From contig NC_002939.5 of the NCBI RefSeq assembly GCF_000007985.2, positions 2,940,001-2,972,000 on the forward strand: DNA of 32,000 nucleotides, in the 5' to 3' direction. Every line of letters starts with the position of its first letter. The stretch's first letter is position 1. Positions 4,084 through 15,374 of this stretch are shown piece after piece. The DNA comes from Geobacter sulfurreducens PCA (GTDB taxonomy: Bacteria > Desulfobacterota > Desulfuromonadia > Geobacterales > Geobacteraceae). The notes under the pieces were generated by a model. The model did no database searches, was not told where the DNA came from, and saw only the letters and a program-made list of their open reading frames with translations. A program made the position numbers and the translations under genes.

Positions 4084-5376
4084 TTACTCCCCTTGGTCAG
4101 TCCCCAGCTTTGCCAGCAATTCCTCTTTCCCTGACACGCTCATCTTATCGTAAATCCGTTTCATGTAGGTCTTGACCGAAGATTCGGAGATGCCCAGCTC
4201 CCGGGCTGCCTCCCTGAACGTCATCCCTCGGACGACGCAGGCGAGGACCGACTTTTCCTGGTCGGAGAAGCGCTTGCGCAGACCCGGCGGAAGCATCAGC
4301 TCAAAGGTCGGCTCAGCGTTGCCGGCCTCGGCTTCCGCCTGATCAGCCATGCCTCCGATTGCCGGAATGGCCGCCACATCCAGGTGCTGTTCGCCTCGCA
4401 TGACCAGATAAAGAACAAGAACCGATGAAGTGAGGACGAGATTCGCTACAGCCACCACCAGTTGAGAGGCGTCGCCGATCAGGAGCGAGGCCGTCTTGCC
4501 TGCAGCTATGCCGGCGCAGGTGACCGCAAGACCGATGCCGAAGGCACGGCAGCTGTTTCTCTGGGCAAGAAGCAGCGCCAGCAGGTAGAGATCGAGGAAC
4601 CCCGCTGCCACCTGCATGGCGAACAGGGCCACGTTAACCGATGCCGCCCCGTCTATCAGAACGAGGGAAAAGGCGAACATGGCCATCACGATAGCCAGGG
4701 CCAGAAGCCCCTCCCTCCGGCGGCGCAGGAACATAAGCCCCACAAGGACGGCTACTACGTAAAAGGCGAGTTCGATCCCGGGAAGAAAGGCTGCCTCGGC
4801 ATATTCCTGGTACAGGGCCCCGTACATGAGACCACTTACGATCTGAAAAACGAACACGAAGGGGAGAAAGGGGGCCAGGTTCGATTCCCCGTCGGCTTCG
4901 TCCTGAGCCCCGGTGCGTGCCAGCGTGGGAACCAGAAGCAAGGCTGCCGCGGCCGGGAATTTCACGCTGTGGGGCACGGGAACGATCATGAACACGAAGA
5001 GCAGGACATTGGCCGCTGCCAGGCCGACTGCAGCCGATACCGCTACTGTGGGAGAGCGCTTCAGGATGCTGCCCGCCTTGACGCAAACAAAAGCTGATCC
5101 CACGCCGGCCGTGGCCAGAAACCAGGGGACTCCGGCAGGGACCTGGGCGATCAGCAGCGTCGAGCCTGCGGCGGCTGCTCCGCCGACGGCTGCCAGGGGC
5201 GGCAGCATCCGCCGCGGAAGAGCGGCGCCTATGACTGCCAGCGTAACGACGTGGGGAATGAGAAAAAAGAGGATAGCGTTGCCCGACCCGACGTGGGCCA
5301 GCAGGAATCCCTCCATGGGGAGGGCAAGGAGCCAGACGACAAAGGCGACAAAGGGAAGTGATGCTGTAAGGGTCAT
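4084..5376 (-). CDS. LuxR/FixJ-type HTH transcriptional regulator fused to a ~10-TM N-terminal membrane domain
   Basis: About 345 residues consist of consecutive hydrophobic helices. The C-terminus FSDQEKSVLACVVRGMTFREAARELGISESSVKTYMKRIYDKMSV is a GerE/LuxR HTH. The start is ATG 5376. Confidence 0.85.
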   Translation of the reverse strand: MTLTASLPFVAFVVWLLALPMEGFLLAHVGSGNAILFFLIPHVVTLAVIGAALPRRMLPPLAAVGGAAAAGSTLLIAQVPAGVPWFLATAGVGSAFVCVKAGSILKRSPTVAVSAAVGLAAANVLLFVFMIVPVPHSVKFPAAAALLLVPTLARTGAQDEADGESNLAPFLPFVFVFQIVSGLMYGALYQEYAEAAFLPGIELAFYVVAVLVGLMFLRRRREGLLALAIVMAMFAFSLVLIDGAASVNVALFAMQVAAGFLDLYLLALLLAQRNSCRAFGIGLAVTCAGIAAGKTASLLIGDASQLVVAVANLVLTSSVLVLYLVMRGEQHLDVAAIPAIGGMADQAEAEAGNAEPTFELMLPPGLRKRFSDQEKSVLACVVRGMTFREAARELGISESSVKTYMKRIYDKMSVSGKEELLAKLGTDQGE

Positions 5377-5687: not shown

Positions 5688-7295
5688 ATGAAGCGACTGA
5701 AAAAGGCCCGGCGACTGCGGCTGCTCACGGCGTGGCTGGCAGTGGTGGCACTGGCGCCGGCCGCGGCACTGGCGGCTGAACACGAGATTCACGGCTCCAA
5801 CGACTTTTCGATTACCTACAATGACGTGCAGGGTGCCGGCGGGAGTCAGTCGTCCCTCACCGAGGGAACACGGTACCTGGAGATTCTCAACCTCTTCGGC
5901 AACGGCCGGGCGGGAGACTTCGACTACAACTGGACCGTGGGAGCCAAGGCTACCGACGACCGGCGCAATGACCAGAAGACCTTCTCTCTCACCAACCTCC
6001 AGGGCAGAGTCAGCAACAAGATCCACACGATCACCCTGGGCGACACCTTCGAGGCGTTCTCCCAGTACTCTCTCAACACTGCGGTCAAGGGCGGCTCCTA
6101 CAAGTTCACCCCGGAACAGTCCTATCTTCCCCAGTTGAGCCTCCTGTACGGCATCGCCTACTCCCGCTGGGATAACTTCTGGGGGGTGGACGCGGTGGAG
6201 CGGCAGGTGGCGGGCGGCAAAATCAGGCAGAACATCGGTCCGGACTTCTGGATCGGCCTGAGCGGAGTCCAGACCAATGATCACGTACGGGTCCTGGGCG
6301 GAGAGCTGACCAACCACCAGACCTGGACCGTCGACTGGGAATACCGCCCGATCCCCGGGCTCACCATCCAGGGGGAATCCTCGTGGCTCAACGGCGACAG
6401 GAGCCCGAGCGACGGCGCCCCCTTTGACGCCTACCACGGCCATGCCCACAAGGTGGTGGCCATCGGCGACGGCGGCCCCAGCCGGGTAACGCTCGAATAC
6501 GAGCGGGTCTCGCCCGAGTTCAGGACCACCATCGGGTCCGCCACTCCCGACCGGGAGAAGGTGAAAGCCAAGTGGCGCTACAAGTACAGCAAGGATCTCA
6601 GCATCACCAGCGCCATGCTCTGGTACCACGACAACCTGGACGGACAGAAGGCCTACGGCACCGACCACTACAAACCCGAGATCGCAGTCTCCCTGAAAAA
6701 ACCGTTCAAGCGCCAGTACGCGGTGGCCGACATCAGCTACAAGCTCGACCGGGCTTACAGTCCCGTGATGCGGAGCCTTGACCACTATATCACCATGGGA
6801 TACCGTGACCGCTTCGGCGTCCTGGACAGCGACTCCACCTTCGGCATCATCGTCTACGACCAGAACGGCACCGCCAAGCGCAAGGACGTGGAATTCACCT
6901 ACAACACCAGCCTCTCCAGCAGGCATACCCTGGGACGGTTCGTGCTGAAGCCCTCCATCTACCTGGGGGGCTGGACCCACAACGACGAGGTGGCCGAGAA
7001 CACCGACCAGATTGTGGAATACTCTGCCGGCTTGGGCGTGGACGTGCCCGACCTGAAGATAACCTCCACCATCAGGGTGGGCGAAAACCGTCTCCTCAAA
7101 GAGGCCGGCACCGATACGGCAAAGACCTTCGCCGGCGTGAACGTCTTCTGGCGGCCCGAAATGCTCGCCAAGGCGCAGGGGATGCTCTACGCCAAGGCGA
7201 GTGTCAATGACTTCCGCTACGACCCCAGCCTGGCCGCCGGCAGCCGGAACTTCCGGGAGACCAGCGTCACCGCGGGCATCAGCATCCAGTTCTGA
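5688..7295 (+). CDS. Outer-membrane beta-barrel protein, unclassified family
   Basis: GGGAGG RBS. The signal peptide is MKRLKKARRLRLLTAWLAVVALAPAAALA/AEHE. The composition is beta-strand-like, rich in Y/G/T/S/D, throughout. The C-terminus SVTAGISIQF carries the terminal aromatic residue typical of BAM substrates. Confidence 0.8.
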   Translation: MKRLKKARRLRLLTAWLAVVALAPAAALAAEHEIHGSNDFSITYNDVQGAGGSQSSLTEGTRYLEILNLFGNGRAGDFDYNWTVGAKATDDRRNDQKTFSLTNLQGRVSNKIHTITLGDTFEAFSQYSLNTAVKGGSYKFTPEQSYLPQLSLLYGIAYSRWDNFWGVDAVERQVAGGKIRQNIGPDFWIGLSGVQTNDHVRVLGGELTNHQTWTVDWEYRPIPGLTIQGESSWLNGDRSPSDGAPFDAYHGHAHKVVAIGDGGPSRVTLEYERVSPEFRTTIGSATPDREKVKAKWRYKYSKDLSITSAMLWYHDNLDGQKAYGTDHYKPEIAVSLKKPFKRQYAVADISYKLDRAYSPVMRSLDHYITMGYRDRFGVLDSDSTFGIIVYDQNGTAKRKDVEFTYNTSLSSRHTLGRFVLKPSIYLGGWTHNDEVAENTDQIVEYSAGLGVDVPDLKITSTIRVGENRLLKEAGTDTAKTFAGVNVFWRPEMLAKAQGMLYAKASVNDFRYDPSLAAGSRNFRETSVTAGISIQF

Positions 7296-7365: not shown

Positions 7366-7842
7366 ATGAAAGCCTATAGCGCCGGACTCTTCCTGCTGCT
7401 CGCCTGTGCCCTTCTTCCCGCCTGCGCGGGGCTGCAGATCGGCGGAGGCGGCGATTCGCCCTCTGCCCTGGCCATGACGAGCCACGGGCAGGTGAGGCAG
7501 ACCATCGACCGGCTCATCGCCGCCTATGAGGCAAAAGACAGTCGCGGCTTCTCCGAGTTGGTGAGCGAACGATACACGGGCGAGGCGGCCATTCTCGAAA
7601 CCGCCGTCCGGCGAGACTTCAGCGCCAACCACAACCTGGCGATCCGCTACACCGTCAACAACATTACCCTCGACGATGGCGGCAAGGCCTTTGCGGCCAT
7701 CACCTTCACCCGGTCCTGGACTGACGTCAAGACCGCCAGAACCATGAACGAAACCAGGGAAACATCCCTGGTGTTCATCCGTGAAAACGGCACCTACAGG
7801 CTCTACAGCCAGAACGGCCCGCCGCTGTTCGGGCTGCACTGA
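7366..7842 (+). CDS. Small exported protein / probable lipoprotein (158 aa) consisting of one NTF2-like (SnoaL/DUF4440-like) module
   Basis: GGGAGG lies 7 nt upstream of ATG 7366. The N-terminus is MKAYSAGLFLLLACALLPACAG, with lipobox-like LLAC/LPAC. The module begins IDRLIAAYEAKDSRGFSELVSERYTGE, a pattern typical of NTF2-like domains. The longer track ORF from 7201 overlaps the OMP gene and was rejected. Confidence 0.8.
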   Translation: MKAYSAGLFLLLACALLPACAGLQIGGGGDSPSALAMTSHGQVRQTIDRLIAAYEAKDSRGFSELVSERYTGEAAILETAVRRDFSANHNLAIRYTVNNITLDDGGKAFAAITFTRSWTDVKTARTMNETRETSLVFIRENGTYRLYSQNGPPLFGLH

Positions 7843-7877
7843 ACGAGCAGATACCCTTACCGATTCAGGAGGAATCC

Positions 7878-9218
7878 ATGAACGCAGTACGATTCTTTGT
7901 CATTCTGACCATGCTGGCCCTGCTGCCCGCCACCGGTCATGCCAAATGGTGGATCTTCGGGCAGGCGGAGAATGAGATCTCCACCCGCTACCTTTATCTG
8001 AACGGCATCTCCTACGACGAGCTGGGTGACAAGGTCACCATCTACCGGGAGACTCTGGACAACGGCCAGGTGGTCCTGCGGGGCAAGGCCGCCACCAGTT
8101 CGTCGGCAGTGGGCTCGGTGCAGGTCAGCACCACCAACAGGGAACGCTGGGAAAAGGCCCGCAAGACCTCCGACGGCAGCTTCGAATATGCCTTCCGCCC
8201 TGAAACGGGCGCATCCTACGTGCTCTACGTCAAGATCATCGACACCACCGGCAAGACCAACGACGTGGATGCCACCCGCAAGGAGATCGTCATCTCCGAC
8301 CGGAACATCTCGGCCCTCATCCGCCAGGCCCTTGATGAGCTGGTTGCGGCCTACCGGGCCGAAGACCCGGCCCGCTTCATGGCCCTTGTCAGCGAGGATT
8401 TCGCCGCGGACCCCGCCGTGCTCGACCGGGCCATCCGCCGGGATTTCACCGCTTTCGACAACATCGATCTGAGCTACACCCTGAACAACGTAACCGCCGC
8501 CAACGGCAAGATCTACGCCGGCTTCACCTTCAGCCGCAAGTTGACCTCTACCCGGAGCGGCCAGACCCTCTCCGACAAGGGTTCCAGTGAGTTCATCTTC
8601 AGCCTCGGGGAAAAGGGGCCGCTGGTGTTCAGCATGAAAAATCCTCTCATCTTCGGCCTCTCCGATGCCTCCAACGTGGCCACGGGCACGGTCAACACCG
8701 GCACGAACGAACCGGTGATCGTCGTGACCAGCAGCGGCGACGTTATCACCCAGCCGTTCACCGAGGCCATCACGACCATCGACAATGGCGGCGTGGTGCA
8801 AACGACAGCTGATACGGTAGAGGCGGGCAGTTTCACTCTCAGTAACAGTTGCCCCGAGGACTCGTGCATTCAGCCGGGATTCCTCTTCAGTTCACAGGAA
8901 GTGACGAACATGTGGACCGGTGACATCAATCTGGAAATCAACCTCATGTTCATCAAGAGCGGCATCGGAATCCAGAACCTGGGGGCGGTCGGCATCAATA
9001 CGGTGACCTCGGCCCCCGCAAGCGGCTATGTCGTTTCAGACGGAACCGGCCTTACCGGCTTCATCGTCGGCGACAACATCGGCAACACCTTTGCGTTCCA
9101 ATTGCTGAACGGCAAGTACGCCCTGCTGGAGGTGGTCTCCTACACCGATCTCGGCGCTGCCAAAACCCGCTCAACCTTCCGATACAAGTACCAACCAGAC
9201 GGAACCCGCAATTTCTAG
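7878..9218 (+). CDS. Exported 446-aa protein: N-terminal beta-sandwich-like region, central NTF2-like module, C-terminal beta-rich domain
   Basis: AGGAGG RBS. The signal peptide is MNAVRFFVILTMLALLPATGHA/KWW. Residues ~144-261 (nt 8307-8660) align clearly with the preceding lipoprotein. Confidence 0.8.
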   Translation: MNAVRFFVILTMLALLPATGHAKWWIFGQAENEISTRYLYLNGISYDELGDKVTIYRETLDNGQVVLRGKAATSSSAVGSVQVSTTNRERWEKARKTSDGSFEYAFRPETGASYVLYVKIIDTTGKTNDVDATRKEIVISDRNISALIRQALDELVAAYRAEDPARFMALVSEDFAADPAVLDRAIRRDFTAFDNIDLSYTLNNVTAANGKIYAGFTFSRKLTSTRSGQTLSDKGSSEFIFSLGEKGPLVFSMKNPLIFGLSDASNVATGTVNTGTNEPVIVVTSSGDVITQPFTEAITTIDNGGVVQTTADTVEAGSFTLSNSCPEDSCIQPGFLFSSQEVTNMWTGDINLEINLMFIKSGIGIQNLGAVGINTVTSAPASGYVVSDGTGLTGFIVGDNIGNTFAFQLLNGKYALLEVVSYTDLGAAKTRSTFRYKYQPDGTRNF

Positions 9219-9232
9219 CGGCACCAGTACCG

Positions 9233-9265
9233 GAGCCGGCAGGGAACGTCCTGCCGGCTCTTTTT
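9233..9265 (+). terminator. Intrinsic terminator/attenuator inside the operon
   Basis: The stem GAGCCGGCAGG / CCTGCCGGCTC is a perfect 11 bp with a 6-nt loop GAACGT, followed by TTTTT. It begins 15 nt after the stop of the 446-aa gene and ends 3 nt before the AGGAGG of the next gene. Confidence 0.7.
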
Positions 9266-9279
9266 GCAGGAGGAGATCC

Positions 9280-12200
9280 ATGAGAACCCTTATCCGCTGC
9301 GTCCTGTTCTGCCTGCTGCTCATTCCCGCCGCGGCCCGGGCCGATGACCAGGTAGCCATGGTGCAGGGACAGATCCAGATGGCTCAGGAGCGTCTGACGG
9401 CATACCAGGGGGAGCTGAGCAGCACCCTCTCCCTGCTGCAGAAAACTCCCAGCGAGGCCACCTTCCAGAAGATCAGGGACCTGCAGGACCGGATCCGGCG
9501 CCAGGGGAACGTGGTGGACACCCTGAGAATGGCCCTGCAGGATGCCCGGGCCGCCCAGAGCTGGAGCGCCCTGGTGAGCGACATGGCCAAGAACTCAACC
9601 ATCCTTGGGCTGGGCGCCGACATCGGGGTATCGGTCTATCAGTCGGGCAAGTGGATCTTCGGTGCCACCGATGATGAAATTTACGGCGAGAACTGGCAGC
9701 AGGTGGAGAGCTACAACGCGAAGCTGGTGGCCGAAGCTCGCGCCATCCGGGATGAGTCGAAGGCCATCCTCGGCGCCCTTGACCAGGTTAAGGCCCAGCT
9801 CAATGCCGGCGGCTCCGAGGAGCAGCTCCGCTCCCTGGCTGAAACCCTGTCGGCGCGGCTCCGGGAACTGCAGACCCGAGGGGAGCAGGTCAAAAAGAAC
9901 ATCCGCCTGCTGATCCGCATCTACCGGGCGGAAAAGGAAAATCTCCCTGCCTCGACCCTTTTTCACGGGGTCTTCATGGGGCGCTACACCGAAAAGATGG
10001 TGGAGGAATTCGACGCTTCCAAGCTGGTTGATCTGGTCATCGACGTCATCAAGGGGGATACCAACGACGCGCTGATCAAGCTCATCAAGCCCATGGTCAA
10101 GACCGCCGTGGGGGACTATCTGGCCAAGAATGCCGGCGGCGGGCACCTGACCCCGGAGATCACCGACGACCTGGTCTTCAAGATCCTCTTCGGCGGCGAG
10201 AGCGGCTTCGACGCCCTGATCCAGGACCGGCTCGGCGACGAGGCCGGCGGCGCAGCCATCAAGGGGCTCGTGAAGGAAGTGGTCGCGGCCGAAGCGAACC
10301 ACGTAATCCTCAAGTCCAATCAGCAGTTCTACGGGGCCATGAAGCGCACCCTGAGCACCATGCCTCCCACCGCCGACATCGTCGAGCATACGTTGGTGGT
10401 GGACACCACCGACCAACTGGTGAAGGAGCACAAATCCCTCGTGGAGAGCGGCGCCCGGGCCAAGGCCCAGCGGCTGGCCCAGACCGGCGAGGCAATCAAG
10501 AAAGTCTGGGACCTGGTGCTCAAGGACGCGGTGCAGGCATACCTGCAGAAGGATTCCTTCAACAACGCGGTCAAGGCGGCCGACGAGGCCTGCGAGACCT
10601 GGCGAGGGGAATGGCGCAAGGTCAGGGATGACATGATCCTGACCGAGGATGAGTACGTCAACCACCGCTGGTTCAAGGGGGGGCAGAATGCCGCGGCCCC
10701 TCCGAAACAGGTTGTTGGTGGGACGGAGGATACCGGTAAGACCTATGCGGCGTTCAATCCAGAAGAAGCCGGCAAGCTGCTCGAAGCCCGGAAGCGCCTC
10801 GTGGAGTCGGGTGTCGGGGAAGGGGGAAGTGCCGGCCTGGGAGATTTCGACGCCAACGAGGACGGCCTGGTGGTACTGGCCTGCAACGGCGGGATTCCCC
10901 TCGGACGGGTCGGCTTCGTCCCCCTGCGTGATGTCAAAAAGCTCACCTCCGCAGCACTGTTCGCGCCCTGCGACGAACTGAGCATCCGGCGCAGTGCCGA
11001 AATTGAGGCGGGATACAAGGCATGCGAACACCTCTGGAATCCGCAGTCGGTCAACGAATACTTCGCGTGCAAGGATGCCATGAGGGTCAAGAACAATGCC
11101 TACGCGGAAGAGATCAACCGGTGCATTGACACCAATGTCACCCAGCCCCACCAAGCATTTGCCCAGCGCCGGTTGGAACGGCACCGGCGGCTGAACGACT
11201 GCGAGACGAAACGCTATCAGGAAACGGTGAGGCGAATCCAGGCGGAGATCGCCCCCGCCGTCTCCTGGGCCGAGAGCGTGAGGGGTGACGTAGAGCGGCT
11301 CCAGGAGGCCATCAACAAGCTGCGGCGCTCCGGTCTCATGTACCCGGAAGCACCGCCGCGGCTCCCCGCGGACATCGGCGCAGCCGTTGAGGAGGAGGAG
11401 TACGACACCGCTTCTGCCGACGACAAAATTGCCATGATCCGAGCCAATCTGGGCATCACCAGGGGAATCGACGTGGCGGGCCTTGAGAGTGCCCTGGCCA
11501 GGGCCGACTTCGTGGTGGACTGGGCATCCGTTGACTCGGGCGGGACTCCGTACCTCTGCAAAGAGTTCGTCCTGAACAACCAGCCCGGAATCGAAGAGGT
11601 GGAGTGTACCGGGGGCTATTATGCCCAGGATGAGCAGCTGCTGCAGGACATGGCCCTGATCGCCACCATCAACCCATCGACGGTTCAGGAACTGGTGAGC
11701 CACGGCCGACAGCTTCCGGAGGTGGCCAACCGGCCCCTCCTGGAAGCCATGACCGGCTTCTCCCCCCAGGAAAGCGTCAACCTCTATCGGCAGGGGATGA
11801 GCCAGCGGAACCGGGCCAGGGCGGCCATCGATGGGGTGAACAGCCGCCTCCTGGACGTGGAGAACGTCCTGTCAGGCTCCTCCGTGGCGCAGATATCCCT
11901 CTACTACGACTACCAGTTCACCCCCTGGAAGGTCCGCCGGATCCCGACGCTCCTGGGCCAGGACCTGGACGCCCTCGAAGGGCACATCAGGGAAATGCGG
12001 ACCCGCTTCAACGCCGACAGACAGGTGGTCATCCCCGACTATGATGCCCTGCGGCGCGAAGCAGAGGCCGCCAGCGGCGCGGTGGCGCAGTACCGGGAGA
12101 TATACGGGCGGTATGCCGCCCTGCTGACCAAGCACTTCCCCACGGCGTTTGTCGATGAATTCTCCCCTCCCGACCTGAGCGGTCTCGTGTCGGCCATCGA

Positions 12201-13008
12201 TGCCCAGGCCTTCCTGGCGGAGCGGTATGCCGAGGAATTCAAGCGGGCCGCCACGGCCCTGGATGAAATGGAACGGGAGGTACAGGCCCTCCGCCGCCAG
12301 GAGGAGCAGTCCCTGAAGGGGCTGGAGATCTACCACCAGGCCAGGGCCGGCGCCGTCAAAAAGGCCGCCGGTTCCTGCGCCGCGCTCCCCGCAGACCCGG
12401 AGGGATGCCTCAAGGCCGTTGAGGAAAGCAAGGCTCAACTGCTGGCAATAACTCTGCAGGGAGACATCCTGACCCACTTCCCGTCGCAGAAGTACCGGGA
12501 CCGCCGCGACGAAATCCTGGCCGGCTCCCGAATTGACTACGACATCTATGCGTTGGAGGCAAAGGCAAAGGCGGCCATCGAACAGCGGGAACAGGACGAA
12601 ACCCGGAAACGCGAGGACCGGGAAACCAACGCCCCCCTGAGAATCGCCGAATTCTATCAGCAATTCCGCGGCGCCTATGAGGGGCGCAACGATTCACAAC
12701 TCATCAGCTTCCTTGGCGACGACTGGGAATCGGGCGACGGCACCACCCTTGCCGACCTCCAGGGCTACCTGCGGAACAGCTTCTCGGTGTTCGACGAAAT
12801 CCGCTACACCCAGAGCAATCTCCAGATCCACCCTGCTGCTCAGGGGGGTTACCGGGTCACCTACGATCTGGCCATAATCGGCAGGATCTATGCGGACAAC
12901 CTGACCCATGAGGAAAAATCCACCGTCAGTGAGGAACTGGCCTTCGACAACGGAGGGAAACTGCGGATCACAAGAACCACCGGCGGCCGCTTCTGGTCGG
13001 TGCAGTAG
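9280..13008 (+). CDS. Exported 1242-aa, predominantly alpha-helical/coiled-coil protein with C-terminal NTF2-like module; unknown function
   Basis: AGGAGG RBS. The signal peptide is MRTLIRCVLFCLLLIPAAARA/DDQ. Long heptad-like E/K/R/Q/A/L-rich stretches are present. Six Cys lie within ~110 residues (nt ~10880-11205). The last 126 aa (12628-13005) follow the same module pattern as the two upstream proteins. Confidence 0.85.
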   Translation: MRTLIRCVLFCLLLIPAAARADDQVAMVQGQIQMAQERLTAYQGELSSTLSLLQKTPSEATFQKIRDLQDRIRRQGNVVDTLRMALQDARAAQSWSALVSDMAKNSTILGLGADIGVSVYQSGKWIFGATDDEIYGENWQQVESYNAKLVAEARAIRDESKAILGALDQVKAQLNAGGSEEQLRSLAETLSARLRELQTRGEQVKKNIRLLIRIYRAEKENLPASTLFHGVFMGRYTEKMVEEFDASKLVDLVIDVIKGDTNDALIKLIKPMVKTAVGDYLAKNAGGGHLTPEITDDLVFKILFGGESGFDALIQDRLGDEAGGAAIKGLVKEVVAAEANHVILKSNQQFYGAMKRTLSTMPPTADIVEHTLVVDTTDQLVKEHKSLVESGARAKAQRLAQTGEAIKKVWDLVLKDAVQAYLQKDSFNNAVKAADEACETWRGEWRKVRDDMILTEDEYVNHRWFKGGQNAAAPPKQVVGGTEDTGKTYAAFNPEEAGKLLEARKRLVESGVGEGGSAGLGDFDANEDGLVVLACNGGIPLGRVGFVPLRDVKKLTSAALFAPCDELSIRRSAEIEAGYKACEHLWNPQSVNEYFACKDAMRVKNNAYAEEINRCIDTNVTQPHQAFAQRRLERHRRLNDCETKRYQETVRRIQAEIAPAVSWAESVRGDVERLQEAINKLRRSGLMYPEAPPRLPADIGAAVEEEEYDTASADDKIAMIRANLGITRGIDVAGLESALARADFVVDWASVDSGGTPYLCKEFVLNNQPGIEEVECTGGYYAQDEQLLQDMALIATINPSTVQELVSHGRQLPEVANRPLLEAMTGFSPQESVNLYRQGMSQRNRARAAIDGVNSRLLDVENVLSGSSVAQISLYYDYQFTPWKVRRIPTLLGQDLDALEGHIREMRTRFNADRQVVIPDYDALRREAEAASGAVAQYREIYGRYAALLTKHFPTAFVDEFSPPDLSGLVSAIDAQAFLAERYAEEFKRAATALDEMEREVQALRRQEEQSLKGLEIYHQARAGAVKKAAGSCAALPADPEGCLKAVEESKAQLLAITLQGDILTHFPSQKYRDRRDEILAGSRIDYDIYALEAKAKAAIEQREQDETRKREDRETNAPLRIAEFYQQFRGAYEGRNDSQLISFLGDDWESGDGTTLADLQGYLRNSFSVFDEIRYTQSNLQIHPAAQGGYRVTYDLAIIGRIYADNLTHEEKSTVSEELAFDNGGKLRITRTTGGRFWSVQ

Positions 13009-13162
13009 GCTTATTCCGCTGGAATCAACGTACTAACACGTGCATTGACTATTCGCCCCCCCTCAGTCGCCCTTATAAAATAGGGGGTAAGCCGAAGGCG
13101 GGGGGATAAGATGCGCTGTCGAGTAATCAGGTTTCGTCTTAGTATAACCGGGCGAGTTAATG

Positions 13163-13199
13163 ACAAGGCCCCGCCTGACTGCTGCCGGCGGGGCCTTGT
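13163..13199. terminator. Strong hairpin between convergent genes (bidirectional terminator candidate)
   Basis: ACAAGGCCCCGCC / GGCGGGGCCTTGT is a perfect 13-bp stem with an 11-nt loop, followed by TTGTTGTTG on the plus strand. It lies 20 nt beyond the stop of the minus-strand gene at 13220. Confidence 0.7.
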
Positions 13200-13219
13200 T
13201 GTTGACGCGTAGCGCTTCC

Positions 13220-15286
13220 TCAGAACCCGCGCAGGCTTTCCACCCGCGTGATCAGAGTCGCGCCCCGAATCCGCTCCAGTGTAGCGGTAACTACCGCCAC
13301 ATCGTTATCGAAAGAGCCGTGGGCAAGGGGTATCAGGCCTTGGCCGTCCGAAACCTTTTCCCGTTCCTTGCCGTGGACCCGCACGGGCCCCATTCCCCCC
13401 ATGAAGTTCCGCCACACGTCCACCTCGCCGGCGGCGCGCTGGTTCCAGAGGTCTGCCTGGCCGGGAACAGGACGCCACGCCCCTTCCATACCGAGAATCG
13501 GCATCTTGTGGTAGTCCTCCAACGCCCGGCTCACCAGGTAGAGGAGTGATTTGCCGTAGGGACCCACGGTGTCGGCGCGCTCCCGCTCGTCGCTCAGAAT
13601 ATCGAAGAAGAGGCGGTTCCGATCCACCAGCCCGCGATTGACGGCGGGAACGTAATGGGCCAGGGCAAAACCCACGGTGCAGGCCGGGGCGTAGAGCGAG
13701 ATGCTGGCCACGGGGATCTTTTTCTGACCCAGCCGGTCCAGGAGATGTCCATGGAGGATGGAACCGGCCGAGTGCCCCACGAGATGGATTTCCAGGGAGG
13801 GAATCTGTTTCCTGAGCTCGGCCAGGTGCCCGGCCAGGAGCGTCAGTCCGGCCTCGCGGTCCGCCGCGGCCGCGGCATTCTGCTTCATCTGCATCCAGAC
13901 CGGTTTGACGAGCAGGTTCTCGCTGGCAACCTCCACCGAGCGGTCCCGGGCGTCCTCCAGCCGGTTTTTGATGTCGTCCCACCACCCTCGCGACGGGTCC
14001 TGTGCCGAGGGTTTGAAGAATTTCCCCACGGCATCTTCGAGCATGCCGGCAATGCTCTCGCCGAAGCCGGTTTTCCAGGTCACGAACAGGGGATAGATGT
14101 CGTTGGCCAGGAAGTAGGGGGCCATGACCCTGATCCGCTTGATGGAGGCATCCTCGTCGTTGAGCCCCCCGTGGGCGTAAATGGCGAGCTTTGGTGCGCT
14201 CCTGCCCGACAGCCAGGCCAGCGGCAGGCGGTAGGTGGCCTCTTTCACGGCGCCGGCGGCATCGGACACGTCGAGGAACCGGTTGATGGGGCAGCCGTCA
14301 TTGCCGAGCACAACGGTGTGCTCATAGGCCCGGGATTCACTCAGGGGCTCCACGGCCGGATTCACATAGGTGAAGGGCTTGGAGGTGCTGCCCGAACTCC
14401 AGTACCACGCAGCCTTGCCGTTGGCCACTTCCTGGAGGGTCATGCTGCTCATGGTGCGCCCCTCGCCGCTCACGAGCATGGGGGCGCCCAGGACCGCCAC
14501 CCAGGCGTCGGAGCCATGCTGGATCCAGTCCTCGTAGGTCATGATGGCGAACCCCAGGTATCCCCAATCGTCTCCCCAGGAATTCTGCACGATGAACCCC
14601 TCCGGGGTGTAGCCCACCAGGGCGAAGGCGTGGCCCCCGGTCTCACCGGGTTGCATCCGGATCACCGGCAGGGTTGTCGAAGCATCCAGGAACCACCCCT
14701 TGTGGACCGCCGCCGAGACATAGACGGCCCCCACTTCGTTGATGGCCGCCTGCAGATCTGACACCGAATCCTTGTCGACCCGGTAATACGCTCCCAGAGG
14801 CCGCTGGGCCGCGTCCTGCTGCCACCCCTCCTTTGGGGGGACGAACTTCTGCTTGTAGGGCCAGAGCAGGTCGGTGCAGATGCCGTGGCGGTGCCACCCT
14901 TTCATGGCCCCGCGGCAGCTGGAGCCTTCGTAATCCTCACCGGGCCACTCATCATAGATACGGGCCATGTGGTAGAGCATCCGGGGACTCACCCGGGGAA
15001 CCTTTCCCCCCTTGCGGCCGCGCTGTTTCACCTCCTCCAGATGTTTGCGCCAGTTGAGGTAGTTGATGACCGCGGCCAAGCCGAAGCCGGTGCAGGCCCC
15101 TTCGGTCCCCTGGTCGAGGACCAGTTTGTGGACCTTGGTATAGTCGGCCAGAAAGGTGGTGATGAACGACGGATCGGGGTACTGGGGGGGAAGACTTACC
15201 AGTGGCGGATCGTAGCGGCGGTCACGGTAATCGACACGGTCGGGGCGGGCGTCGAAAATCCGTCCCTGGATTTCTCGCGTGGGCAT
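13220..15286 (-). CDS. Fusion protein: N-terminal papain-like (C1 family) cysteine peptidase + C-terminal DUF900-like alpha/beta hydrolase; no signal peptide
   Basis: The start is ATG 15286, with AAGGAGG 5 nt upstream. C1 motifs: DYRD, Q68...GAC74TGFG (Cys codon at 15092-15094), GGH228AFALVGY and VQN244SWGDDWGYLGF. Hydrolase motifs: LAIYAHGGLNDE, FVTWKTGF, HLVGHS515AGS (Ser codon 13769-13771) and a late LAHGSFD. Residue numbers follow the 697-aa track ORF. Confidence 0.85.
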   Translation of the reverse strand: MPTREIQGRIFDARPDRVDYRDRRYDPPLVSLPPQYPDPSFITTFLADYTKVHKLVLDQGTEGACTGFGLAAVINYLNWRKHLEEVKQRGRKGGKVPRVSPRMLYHMARIYDEWPGEDYEGSSCRGAMKGWHRHGICTDLLWPYKQKFVPPKEGWQQDAAQRPLGAYYRVDKDSVSDLQAAINEVGAVYVSAAVHKGWFLDASTTLPVIRMQPGETGGHAFALVGYTPEGFIVQNSWGDDWGYLGFAIMTYEDWIQHGSDAWVAVLGAPMLVSGEGRTMSSMTLQEVANGKAAWYWSSGSTSKPFTYVNPAVEPLSESRAYEHTVVLGNDGCPINRFLDVSDAAGAVKEATYRLPLAWLSGRSAPKLAIYAHGGLNDEDASIKRIRVMAPYFLANDIYPLFVTWKTGFGESIAGMLEDAVGKFFKPSAQDPSRGWWDDIKNRLEDARDRSVEVASENLLVKPVWMQMKQNAAAAADREAGLTLLAGHLAELRKQIPSLEIHLVGHSAGSILHGHLLDRLGQKKIPVASISLYAPACTVGFALAHYVPAVNRGLVDRNRLFFDILSDERERADTVGPYGKSLLYLVSRALEDYHKMPILGMEGAWRPVPGQADLWNQRAAGEVDVWRNFMGGMGPVRVHGKEREKVSDGQGLIPLAHGSFDNDVAVVTATLERIRGATLITRVESLRGF

Positions 15287-15291
15287 GGCGG

Positions 15292-15374
15292 CCTCCTTGT
15301 CACCAGCGGGCATAGGATAATGCCCTTATTTGATTGATGAAAGTCTGCCACACTTTTCAATGGTGACAAGGAGG
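15292..15374 (-). promoter_or_regulatory. Structured 5' leader: perfect 14-bp stem sequestering the Shine-Dalgarno of the peptidase-hydrolase gene
   Basis: The plus strand has CCTCCTTGTCACCA at 15292-15305 and its exact reverse complement TGGTGACAAGGAGG at 15361-15374. In the minus-strand mRNA, the upstream CCUCCUUGUCACCA therefore pairs with UGGUGACAAGGAGG, which contains the SD. The 55-nt loop holds two smaller hairpins (UGAAAAGU/ACUUUCA and GGGCAU/AUGCCC). Confidence 0.55.

Follow-up and report, generated by a model that had tools for sequence, protein, structure and literature searches.

We analyzed a stretch of 32,000 nucleotides (nt) from Geobacter sulfurreducens PCA (contig NC_002939.5, positions 2,940,001 to 2,972,000), referred to here as the window, and focused on four consecutive + strand genes, three of which encode proteins with an NTF2-like module. 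The genes encode a barrel-like outer-membrane protein of 535 amino acids (aa) (5688..7295, AAR36043, probably GSU2671, named 'Outer membrane channel' in UniProt), a small lipoprotein of 158 aa (7366..7842, AAR36044, probably GSU2672), a mid-sized protein of 446 aa (hereafter mid; 7878..9218, AAR36045, probably GSU2673), and a giant protein of 1242 aa (hereafter big; 9280..13008, AAR36046, probably GSU2674). All four correspond to strain PCA gene products (AAR36043-AAR36046), and the 158-aa protein is 100% identical to an entry named 'lipoprotein [G. sulfurreducens]'. The cassette very probably carries the tags GSU2671-2674, since its flanking genes match GSU2670, listed as a LuxR-family regulator, and GSU2675, which is papain-like in the window and is filed under proteolysis in the supplement of the same study (PMC10599522). 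The genes are separated by gaps of 70, 35, and 61 nt, and the three module-bearing proteins, which an initial annotation had placed in one operon, are indeed encoded in a single cassette. Judged from sequence, our data indicate that GSU2671-2674 is one copy of a conserved, unannotated outer-membrane cassette that spans several phyla.

The module covers residues 42-158 of the lipoprotein, that is, its whole mature domain (7489-7839, + strand), residues 144-255 of mid followed by a conserved PLIFGL tail at 256-261 (8307..8660, + strand), and residues 1117-1242 of big (12628..13005, + strand), exactly where the initial annotation had drawn it. We found that the lipoprotein and mid modules are close relatives, with 38% identity and 62% positives over 117 aa (BLASTP, E 2e-25) and an hhalign match of 99.9% (E 4e-36) between their family profiles. 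Over the first 75 positions their identity is approximately 47% by a hand count of the BLASTP alignment, close to the 40-45% estimated earlier by eye. The big module had been expected to be more distant, and it is: BLASTP returned E 0.17 against the lipoprotein module, in the hand-drawn register, and nothing against the mid module, and a shallow profile of seven sequences reached only 39.7% in hhalign. The relationship became clear only once a search of 1.84 billion proteins had supplied diverse members. With 151 sequences, the big-module profile matched the mid module at 94.5% (E 8e-8) and the lipoprotein family at 93.0% (E 3e-7, over 61 columns that correspond to blocks 1 and 2 of the initial annotation), and a forced global alignment of the big module was colinear over 107 columns at 90.5%. 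Controls, consisting of reversed profiles and the immunoglobulin (Ig)-like and C-terminal domains of mid, gave 0.1-1.6% (E 0.03-0.5). Profile-profile comparison had been set beforehand as the test that could refute a shared module, and the module withstood it, with 93-94.5% against controls of at most 1.6%.

Searches of 2539 open reading frames (ORFs) from related loci point the same way. A hidden Markov model (HMM) of the mid module reaches the C-termini of big proteins down to E 3e-6 and matches most of them at E≤1e-3, and the big-module HMM matches mid and small proteins at 1e-5 to 1e-3. Outside the cassette, none of 177,635 PDB sequences matched the big-module profile below E 0.28, the lipoprotein profile found nothing significant among PDB sequences, and the best Pfam NTF2 family matched 12 of 41 big-module members at E≤1. 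Among the libraries used, the mid and small modules thus appear to be the nearest detectable relatives of the big module, if still distant ones. Big has only a few positions in common with mid and the small protein: helix 1 contributes AY, strand 1 an aromatic residue, helix 3 R..F..F, and strand 4 one Glu. The tails noted at the ends of the first two modules (PPLFGL and NPLIFGL) are real and are conserved across both families: all of 101 mid homologues have P256, L257, F259, and G260, and the lipoprotein family has P152, L154, F155, and G156 nearly without exception. Overall, the proposal of one module holds in that the three copies are homologous and fails in that they do not form a uniform family. 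Their alignments indicate two families, in which the lipoprotein and mid modules are close, recent paralogues and the big module belongs to a separate, much larger, and older sister family.

We found that the modules adopt a common predicted fold. The AlphaFold model of the big module (pLDDT 83.8, pTM 0.75) has helices at 2-17 and 21-26, a strand at 28-34, a helix at 40-53, and then four long strands, and the model of the mid module has helices at 144-160, 164-168, and 179-192 followed by four long strands. Both models show the a1-a2-b1-a3-b2-b5 arrangement of the NTF2 cone. Foldseek returned 311 PDB matches to the big module at E≤1e-3, and the best 50 of these 311 are all NTF2-like; the top matches include LinA, the scytalone-dehydratase-like 3ef8 (TM 0.81), the KSI-like 3hx8, 3rob (TM 0.80), CaMKII hubs, and Aln2/ActVI-ORFA. 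The mid module matches entries in common with the big module (3hx8, TMt 0.75; 3rob, TMt 0.74-0.76). In Pfam, matches were confined to families of the NTF2 clan and stayed below threshold for all three window modules: the lipoprotein scored 18-20 bits against SnoaL_3 (cutoff 22), a match that recurs below threshold in 21 of 32 members of its family, and mid scored 15.6-18.6 bits against SnoaL_2 (cutoff 27). The big module of the window, searched alone, had no NTF2-family Pfam match at E≤10. Its family gave weak matches to NTF2_YvbJ, Cds6_C, DUF4440, and SnoaL_3, and these across-family matches are given as E-values (best 5e-5 to 1e-4), not as scores against cutoffs. The NTF2/SnoaL/DUF4440-type fold suggested in the initial annotation is thus supported by two AlphaFold models, by Foldseek, and by weak Pfam matches. 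These models place the modules in the NTF2-like fold superfamily, with the fold of the lipoprotein predicted through its 38% identity to mid. One relative, a protein of 1720 aa (P0267), carries three big-type modules in tandem at residues 1314-1718, and its middle repeat passes the SnoaL_3 gathering score with 46.9 bits; this protein is a bridging relative between big-type modules and SnoaL_3, and its tandem hints at modules that work as a trimer-like set.

The big proteins differ sharply in conservation between body and C-terminus. The big protein of the window consists of a signal peptide (about residues 1-21) and a fast-evolving body with 11 Cys (together 9280..12627, + strand), followed by the module. 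The last 127 residues share 43-67% identity with 35 of 35 big ORFs from related loci (BLASTP), whereas the first 1115 residues match only four of the 35, over approximately 250-480 residues at 21-26% identity. In a whole-length alignment of 48 sequences, big proteins were 13-20% identical to the window protein, with invariant columns confined to the module. A profile of the module matched 381 clusters in a set of 1.84 billion representative proteins, 340 of them below 1e-10. These approximately 380 clusters are exported proteins, mostly of 900-1400 aa, with mutually unalignable bodies. Among the representatives examined, the module lies at most five residues from the C-terminus in 148 of 149, and a hydrophobic segment stands at the N-terminus of 92 of the 97 full-length members. 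The bodies are rich in the helix-favouring residues A, E, L, K, Q, R, and M, which make up about 47-50% of their residues (50% in the window protein). No Pfam, NCBIfam, or PDB match to the body was found, the search of the big protein against PDB giving one spurious hit; Pfam searches of seven big proteins likewise left the bodies bare except for a TPR in one. Conservation of this kind is what a constant handle would show when attached to a body that diversifies quickly.

We asked how the genes are distributed by scanning genomes with the big module alone (a 14-sequence subset), which returned 28 distinct loci. These belong to Nitrospirota (Nitrospiraceae, Thermodesulfovibrio), Desulfobacterota (Geobacteraceae, Desulfobacula, Smithella), Elusimicrobiota, Moraxellaceae/Fluviicoccus, Gastranaerophilales, and a 'Clostridia' metagenome-assembled genome (MAG). 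By HMM annotation, the barrel gene is present in 20 and the mid gene in 23 of these 28 loci. The usual order is barrel, mid, and big, and loci that deviate are for the most part contigs that are cut short or orphan big genes. Barrel, mid, and big occur together in Nitrospirota, Desulfobacterota, Elusimicrobiota, Moraxellaceae, and Melainabacteria, and all 22 distinct loci that contain a barrel encode at least two NTF2-bearing proteins. The small NTF2 protein is found in 10 of the 22, in varying position. Several loci encode more than one big protein per barrel, two in L005, L007, and L009 and three in L015, and two whole cassettes are present in L006 and L014. In one Elusimicrobiales MAG, big genes also occur as orphans with no cassette near them (L024, L028).

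Two further arrangements join big to mid physically. In an Omnitrophota locus (L001/L002, 9836-23507), a barrel and a 151-aa NTF2 lipoprotein are followed by three tandem fusions of approximately 1350-1600 aa, in which big residues 1 to ~1030-1066 are joined to mid residues 41/137-446 and which lack a big-type module. Downstream of these fusions is a 1536-aa CarboxypepD_reg protein. In an Elusimicrobiales locus (L031, 3-2684), an Ig domain of mid type stands directly before the C-terminal module of a big protein, with the mid HMM (47-182) overlapping the start of the big-module match, and in its architecture this protein seems to stand between big and mid. Beside the cassette, the three loci that we inspected showed neither an ATPase nor an inner-membrane component; that no energy-coupling gene was seen there fits an envelope complex that assembles by itself.

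The first gene, GSU2671, encodes a protein with a signal-peptide-like N-terminus, a C-terminal ...ISIQF that ends in an aromatic residue of the beta-signal type, approximately 20 alternating amphipathic segments in a crude scan, and no hydrophobic helix (maximum 19-residue Kyte-Doolittle mean 0.56). These are general features of outer-membrane beta-barrels, and the protein may be described as barrel-like with approximately 20 predicted strands. It had no Pfam, NCBIfam, or PDB sequence match, and a barrel profile searched against PDB gave 0 hits. Its homologues share 40-71% identity, and 20% in Omnitrophota. The true start of the lipoprotein is the ATG at 7366, which follows GGGAGG; the ORF as listed begins further upstream. 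Its signal peptide and lipobox LPAC occupy 7366-7425 on the + strand, with Cys20 at 7423-7425; in the family alignment the second Cys is the conserved one, which sets the lipobox Cys at residue 20.

Mid, which has 279 homologues and an AlphaFold model of pLDDT 90, is built of a signal peptide and four further parts on the + strand. Its mature N-terminus is the peptide AKWWIFGQ (residues 22-29, 7941..7964; N-terminal peptide KWWIFGQAENEIS), in which A22, W24, W25, F27, and G28 are invariant in 101 sequences and which has a pLDDT below 50 in the monomer model. This peptide may be a candidate for binding or docking in trans. A similar motif, KWIFGATDDEIYGENWQ, occurs in the big protein at residues 123-139 (9646-9696) and is kept in its Nitrospirota and Omnitrophota relatives; W[IL]FG as a feature of the whole big family was rejected, being present in four of 100 representatives. 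An Ig-like beta-sandwich (residues 34-140, 7977..8297) precedes the NTF2-like module. It matches Big_13 in 87 and Mo-co_dimer in 23 of 101 family members, and Foldseek and PDB-profile searches relate it to the dimerisation domain of sulfite oxidase. The C-terminal all-beta domain (residues 279-446, 8712..9215) is HmuY-like below threshold. A mid family profile of 101 sequences matched 6eu8 in PDB at E 1.8e-3 over 29-195 of its 196 residues, with 3u22 and 6r2h weaker, and Pfam HmuY matched 13 of 101 members (best 1.2e-5). Across the 101-sequence alignment, residues 279-446 contain no invariant His or Met and no conserved His or Met pair.

The initial annotation had also pointed to a near-identical initiation region in front of the two larger genes. 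The sequences are present, CAGGAGGAATCCATGA at 7866-7881 and CAGGAGGAGATCCATGA at 9267-9283, and turned out to be just an AGGAGG ribosome-binding site and spacer. Read directly on the + strand, the Shine-Dalgarno sequences lie at 7866..7872 (AGGAGG core) for the 446-aa gene and at 9268..9274 for the 1242-aa gene. We rejected the region as a special element, since a Shine-Dalgarno sequence and a spacer account for it and the window has no further copy of the pattern. A 12-bp GC-rich hairpin followed by U5 (9233..9264, + strand), terminator- or attenuator-like, separates the mid stop codon from the ribosome-binding site of the big gene; it reads GAGCCGGCAGGG-AACG-UCCUGCCGGCUC and then UUUUU. The 67-nt stretch 9219-9285 that contains it has a folding energy of -30.5 kcal/mol (z -3.26). 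A terminator scan found no + strand terminator within the cassette, missing this hairpin. The hairpin may reduce read-through into the big gene and act as an attenuator that sets the ratio of mid to big. Past the big gene, an inverted repeat seen by eye, CAAGGCCCCGCC...GGCGGGGCCTTG (13161-13203), lies between it and the convergent GSU2675 and looks like a candidate bidirectional terminator.

On the upstream side, a divergent minus-strand gene (4084-5376), probably GSU2670, encodes a polytopic membrane protein with a C-terminal LuxR/GerE helix-turn-helix and is a candidate regulator of the cassette. GSU2670 is reported to be upregulated in a hyper-biofilm mutant, gsu1771 (PMC10599522), a hint that the cassette may act in biofilm or at the surface. 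The convergent minus-strand gene (13220-15313), probably GSU2675, encodes 697 aa; the N-terminal half is papain C1-like, and the C-terminal half, which has no annotation, contains, by eye, a serine-hydrolase-like motif, HLVGHSAGS. GSU2675 is reported to be downregulated in the gsu1771 mutant biofilm (PMC10599522, supplement), and a CsrB-like small RNA is predicted antisense to it (PMC11934962). Annotated neighbours in the window comprise the LuxR regulator, the papain-like protease, histidine kinases, and EamA transporters. A porin-cytochrome complex was considered for the cassette and rejected, as by eye none of the four proteins has a CXXCH motif. Scans of the four proteins with Pfam, NCBIfam, PADLOC, and PHROGs gave nothing above threshold. 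The searchable main texts of the literature do not mention GSU2671-2674, a search for NTF2-like outer-membrane lipoprotein systems found only reviews on MlaC, type IV secretion systems (T4SS), and Mce, and a search for 'Cds6' with NTF2 found nothing.

Homology, fold, synteny, the asymmetry of conservation, and the fusion of big to mid are established by these data, whereas pairing of the NTF2-like modules, their place at the barrel, and the task of an assembled complex are inferred. We hypothesized that the modules are non-enzymatic assembly handles which would pair with each other and tie big, mid, and small together at or under the barrel, a reading that we favor tentatively and would put at a little short of an even chance. 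In such a cassette the parts would be a barrel-like protein, a mid protein of Ig, NTF2, and HmuY-like domains, at least one big Sec-exported protein of approximately 1000-1400 aa, and, often, a small protein or lipoprotein that is a bare NTF2 domain. The modules would pair through their sheets, or dock to the barrel, and in this way the mid adaptor, the variable big proteins, and, in loci that have one, the small anchor would be kept in one outer-membrane complex. This reading draws on the conserved module against hypervariable bodies, on synteny across phyla, on several big paralogues per barrel, on the Omnitrophota fusions, and on the presence of at least two NTF2 genes in each barrel locus. 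NTF2-fold proteins commonly pair through their sheets, and the CaMKII hub, LinA, and scytalone dehydratase families form oligomers; we counted the oligomerization of these structural neighbours, and the tandem modules of P0267, in favor of assembly handles. Several points weigh on the other side. Because the big module was the query that retrieved the loci, its joint occurrence with the barrel is to some extent built into the search. Twelve of the 22 barrel loci lack the small protein, which means that a fixed three-way complex cannot be a general feature; nor is lipoprotein anchoring of the small protein conserved, the Nitrospirota copies having ordinary signal peptides. The barrel nature of the first gene is a call from sequence heuristics only. 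Furthermore, the big module has a strongly conserved polar strand, H-E-E-K-S-x-V-x-E-E, and invariant Tyr and Trp residues, which would also suit a ligand pocket.

Such a pocket would raise the question of whether each NTF2 cone binds the same envelope molecule, such as a lipid, lipopolysaccharide, a peptidoglycan fragment, or a hydrophobic metabolite, in the way that MlaC binds phospholipid or the NTF2 domain of Pgp2 binds peptidoglycan. NTF2 cones are classic ligand pockets, the very high conservation of the big module extends to polar strand residues and invariant aromatics, and among the structures that Foldseek places near mid are two peptidoglycan carboxypeptidases that carry an accessory NTF2 domain, Pgp2 and Bd1075, as well as RsgI9 S1C-NTF2. 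MlaC is described with an NTF2-like domain in PMC12153054. We consider a common ligand unlikely; few positions are common to the big and the mid or small modules, which leaves little for a common pocket, and the cassette contains no lipid-transport or peptidoglycan genes. Catalysis by SnoaL/KSI/LinA-type NTF2 enzymes would fit the top Foldseek matches, which are LinA, scytalone-dehydratase-like, and KSI-like enzymes, yet identity to these is 12-19%, no Pfam enzyme family was matched at threshold, and the polar residues that hhalign finds common to the three modules are limited to an Arg of helix 3 and a Glu of strand 4. To be carried by a lipoprotein, by a protein with an Ig domain, and by the ends of giant proteins with many helix-favouring residues is also an atypical setting for these enzymes, and we regard catalysis as highly improbable. 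The sequences are consistent with the suggestion in the initial annotation of docking, oligomerisation, or targeting rather than an enzyme.

A different use of the same asymmetry is that the C-terminal NTF2 domain of big is a signal for export or surface display read by a dedicated barrel, with mid and the small protein as accessories of the translocon, in a new Sec-dependent outer-membrane pathway for secretion or display. A conserved C-terminal domain behind a hypervariable body and an N-terminal signal peptide in approximately 380 clusters, several big paralogues per barrel, and the orphan big genes of the Elusimicrobiales MAG all agree with such a signal, as do the Ig-like and HmuY-like domains of mid, since domains of these kinds are typical of surface proteins. 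Surface exposure of the components is a proposal, however, the barrel matches no known translocon family, and the Omnitrophota fusions lack a big-type module; we also know of no case in which a folded NTF2 domain of 125 aa serves as a signal for secretion. We give a cargo signal a minor chance, and we are equally doubtful of the corresponding phylum-spanning export or display system, in which barrel and Ig-NTF2-HmuY-like adaptor would recognise the folded NTF2 domain and place giant proteins on the surface. Lastly, exported proteins often carry NTF2-like domains, and big could have gained its module independently, with no functional link to the others. This module is only distantly related to them (BLASTP E 0.17), and mid and small proteins are not among the best 150 of the 381 matches in the 1.84-billion-protein search. 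Against independent acquisition, adjacency is conserved across at least five phyla, the cross-hits between profiles are stronger than those to any Pfam or PDB NTF2 family, a fusion of big to mid exists, and the Elusimicrobiales big protein in L031 carries a mid-type Ig domain directly before its module. We find it quite unlikely that the modules are unconnected.

If the modules are handles for assembly or targeting, the cassette would represent a diderm envelope system that is named by no annotation resource. The cassette or its parts are found in Geobacter, Nitrospirota, Elusimicrobiota, Omnitrophota, Moraxellaceae, and Melainabacteria, and the conserved C-terminal domain of approximately 380 clusters offers a possible route to find, pull down, or retarget these proteins. 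Since G. sulfurreducens is genetically tractable, GSU2671-2674 provides a direct experimental entry point.

Compared with known families, the window modules share with SnoaL_3, DUF4440, SnoaL_2, and NTF2_YvbJ the fold and a weak signature (AY in helix 1, an acidic-aromatic strand 1, and F..F in helix 3), but they fall below the gathering scores and form families of their own tied to the barrel cassette, and the big module has a set place, at the very C-terminal end of giant exported proteins. The HmuY likeness is confined to the C-terminal beta domain of mid, which matches HmuY-like structures and Pfam HmuY below threshold; unlike HmuY, this domain has no conserved His or Met ligands, sits behind Ig and NTF2 domains, and is accompanied by no TonB-dependent receptor in the cassette. 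The Mla system differs in that we found no Pfam or NCBIfam match to MlaC or Mla and no mla genes nearby. LptD-LptE and MtrB-MtrA offer an analogy only: in those complexes too, the gene for a large barrel is accompanied by genes for a small lipoprotein and for periplasmic partners that might be lodged inside or beneath the barrel, whereas sequence similarity, haem motifs, and Lpt genes are all absent here.

The closest parallels lie in logic and in fold. As in the type IX secretion system (T9SS), with its conserved C-terminal domain (CTD), and in Slam/type XI secretion (T11SS), Sec-exported cargo with variable bodies and a conserved C-terminal domain is encoded with a dedicated barrel, with several paralogues per barrel, although export by the cassette is a proposal. 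The domain here is an NTF2 cone, whereas that of T9SS or Slam/T11SS cargo is an Ig-like sandwich or an 8-strand barrel, and the cassette barrel matches neither PorV/SprA nor DUF560, having no Pfam or NCBIfam hit. With VirB8 and the CaMKII hub the likeness is by fold, since an NTF2 domain there helps to assemble an envelope machine without a catalytic role or forms an oligomeric hub, and the CaMKII hub is a structural neighbour of the big module (TM 0.72-0.77). VirB8 is not among the best 50 of the 311 Foldseek matches, the cassette proteins have cleavable signal peptides or a lipobox in place of an N-terminal membrane anchor, and T4SS genes are absent from the annotated neighbours in the window and from L001-L003. 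Although a member of none of these systems, the cassette would, by analogy, work most like the NTF2 scaffolds exemplified by VirB8 and the CaMKII hub, or like the systems that handle cargo through a C-terminal domain.

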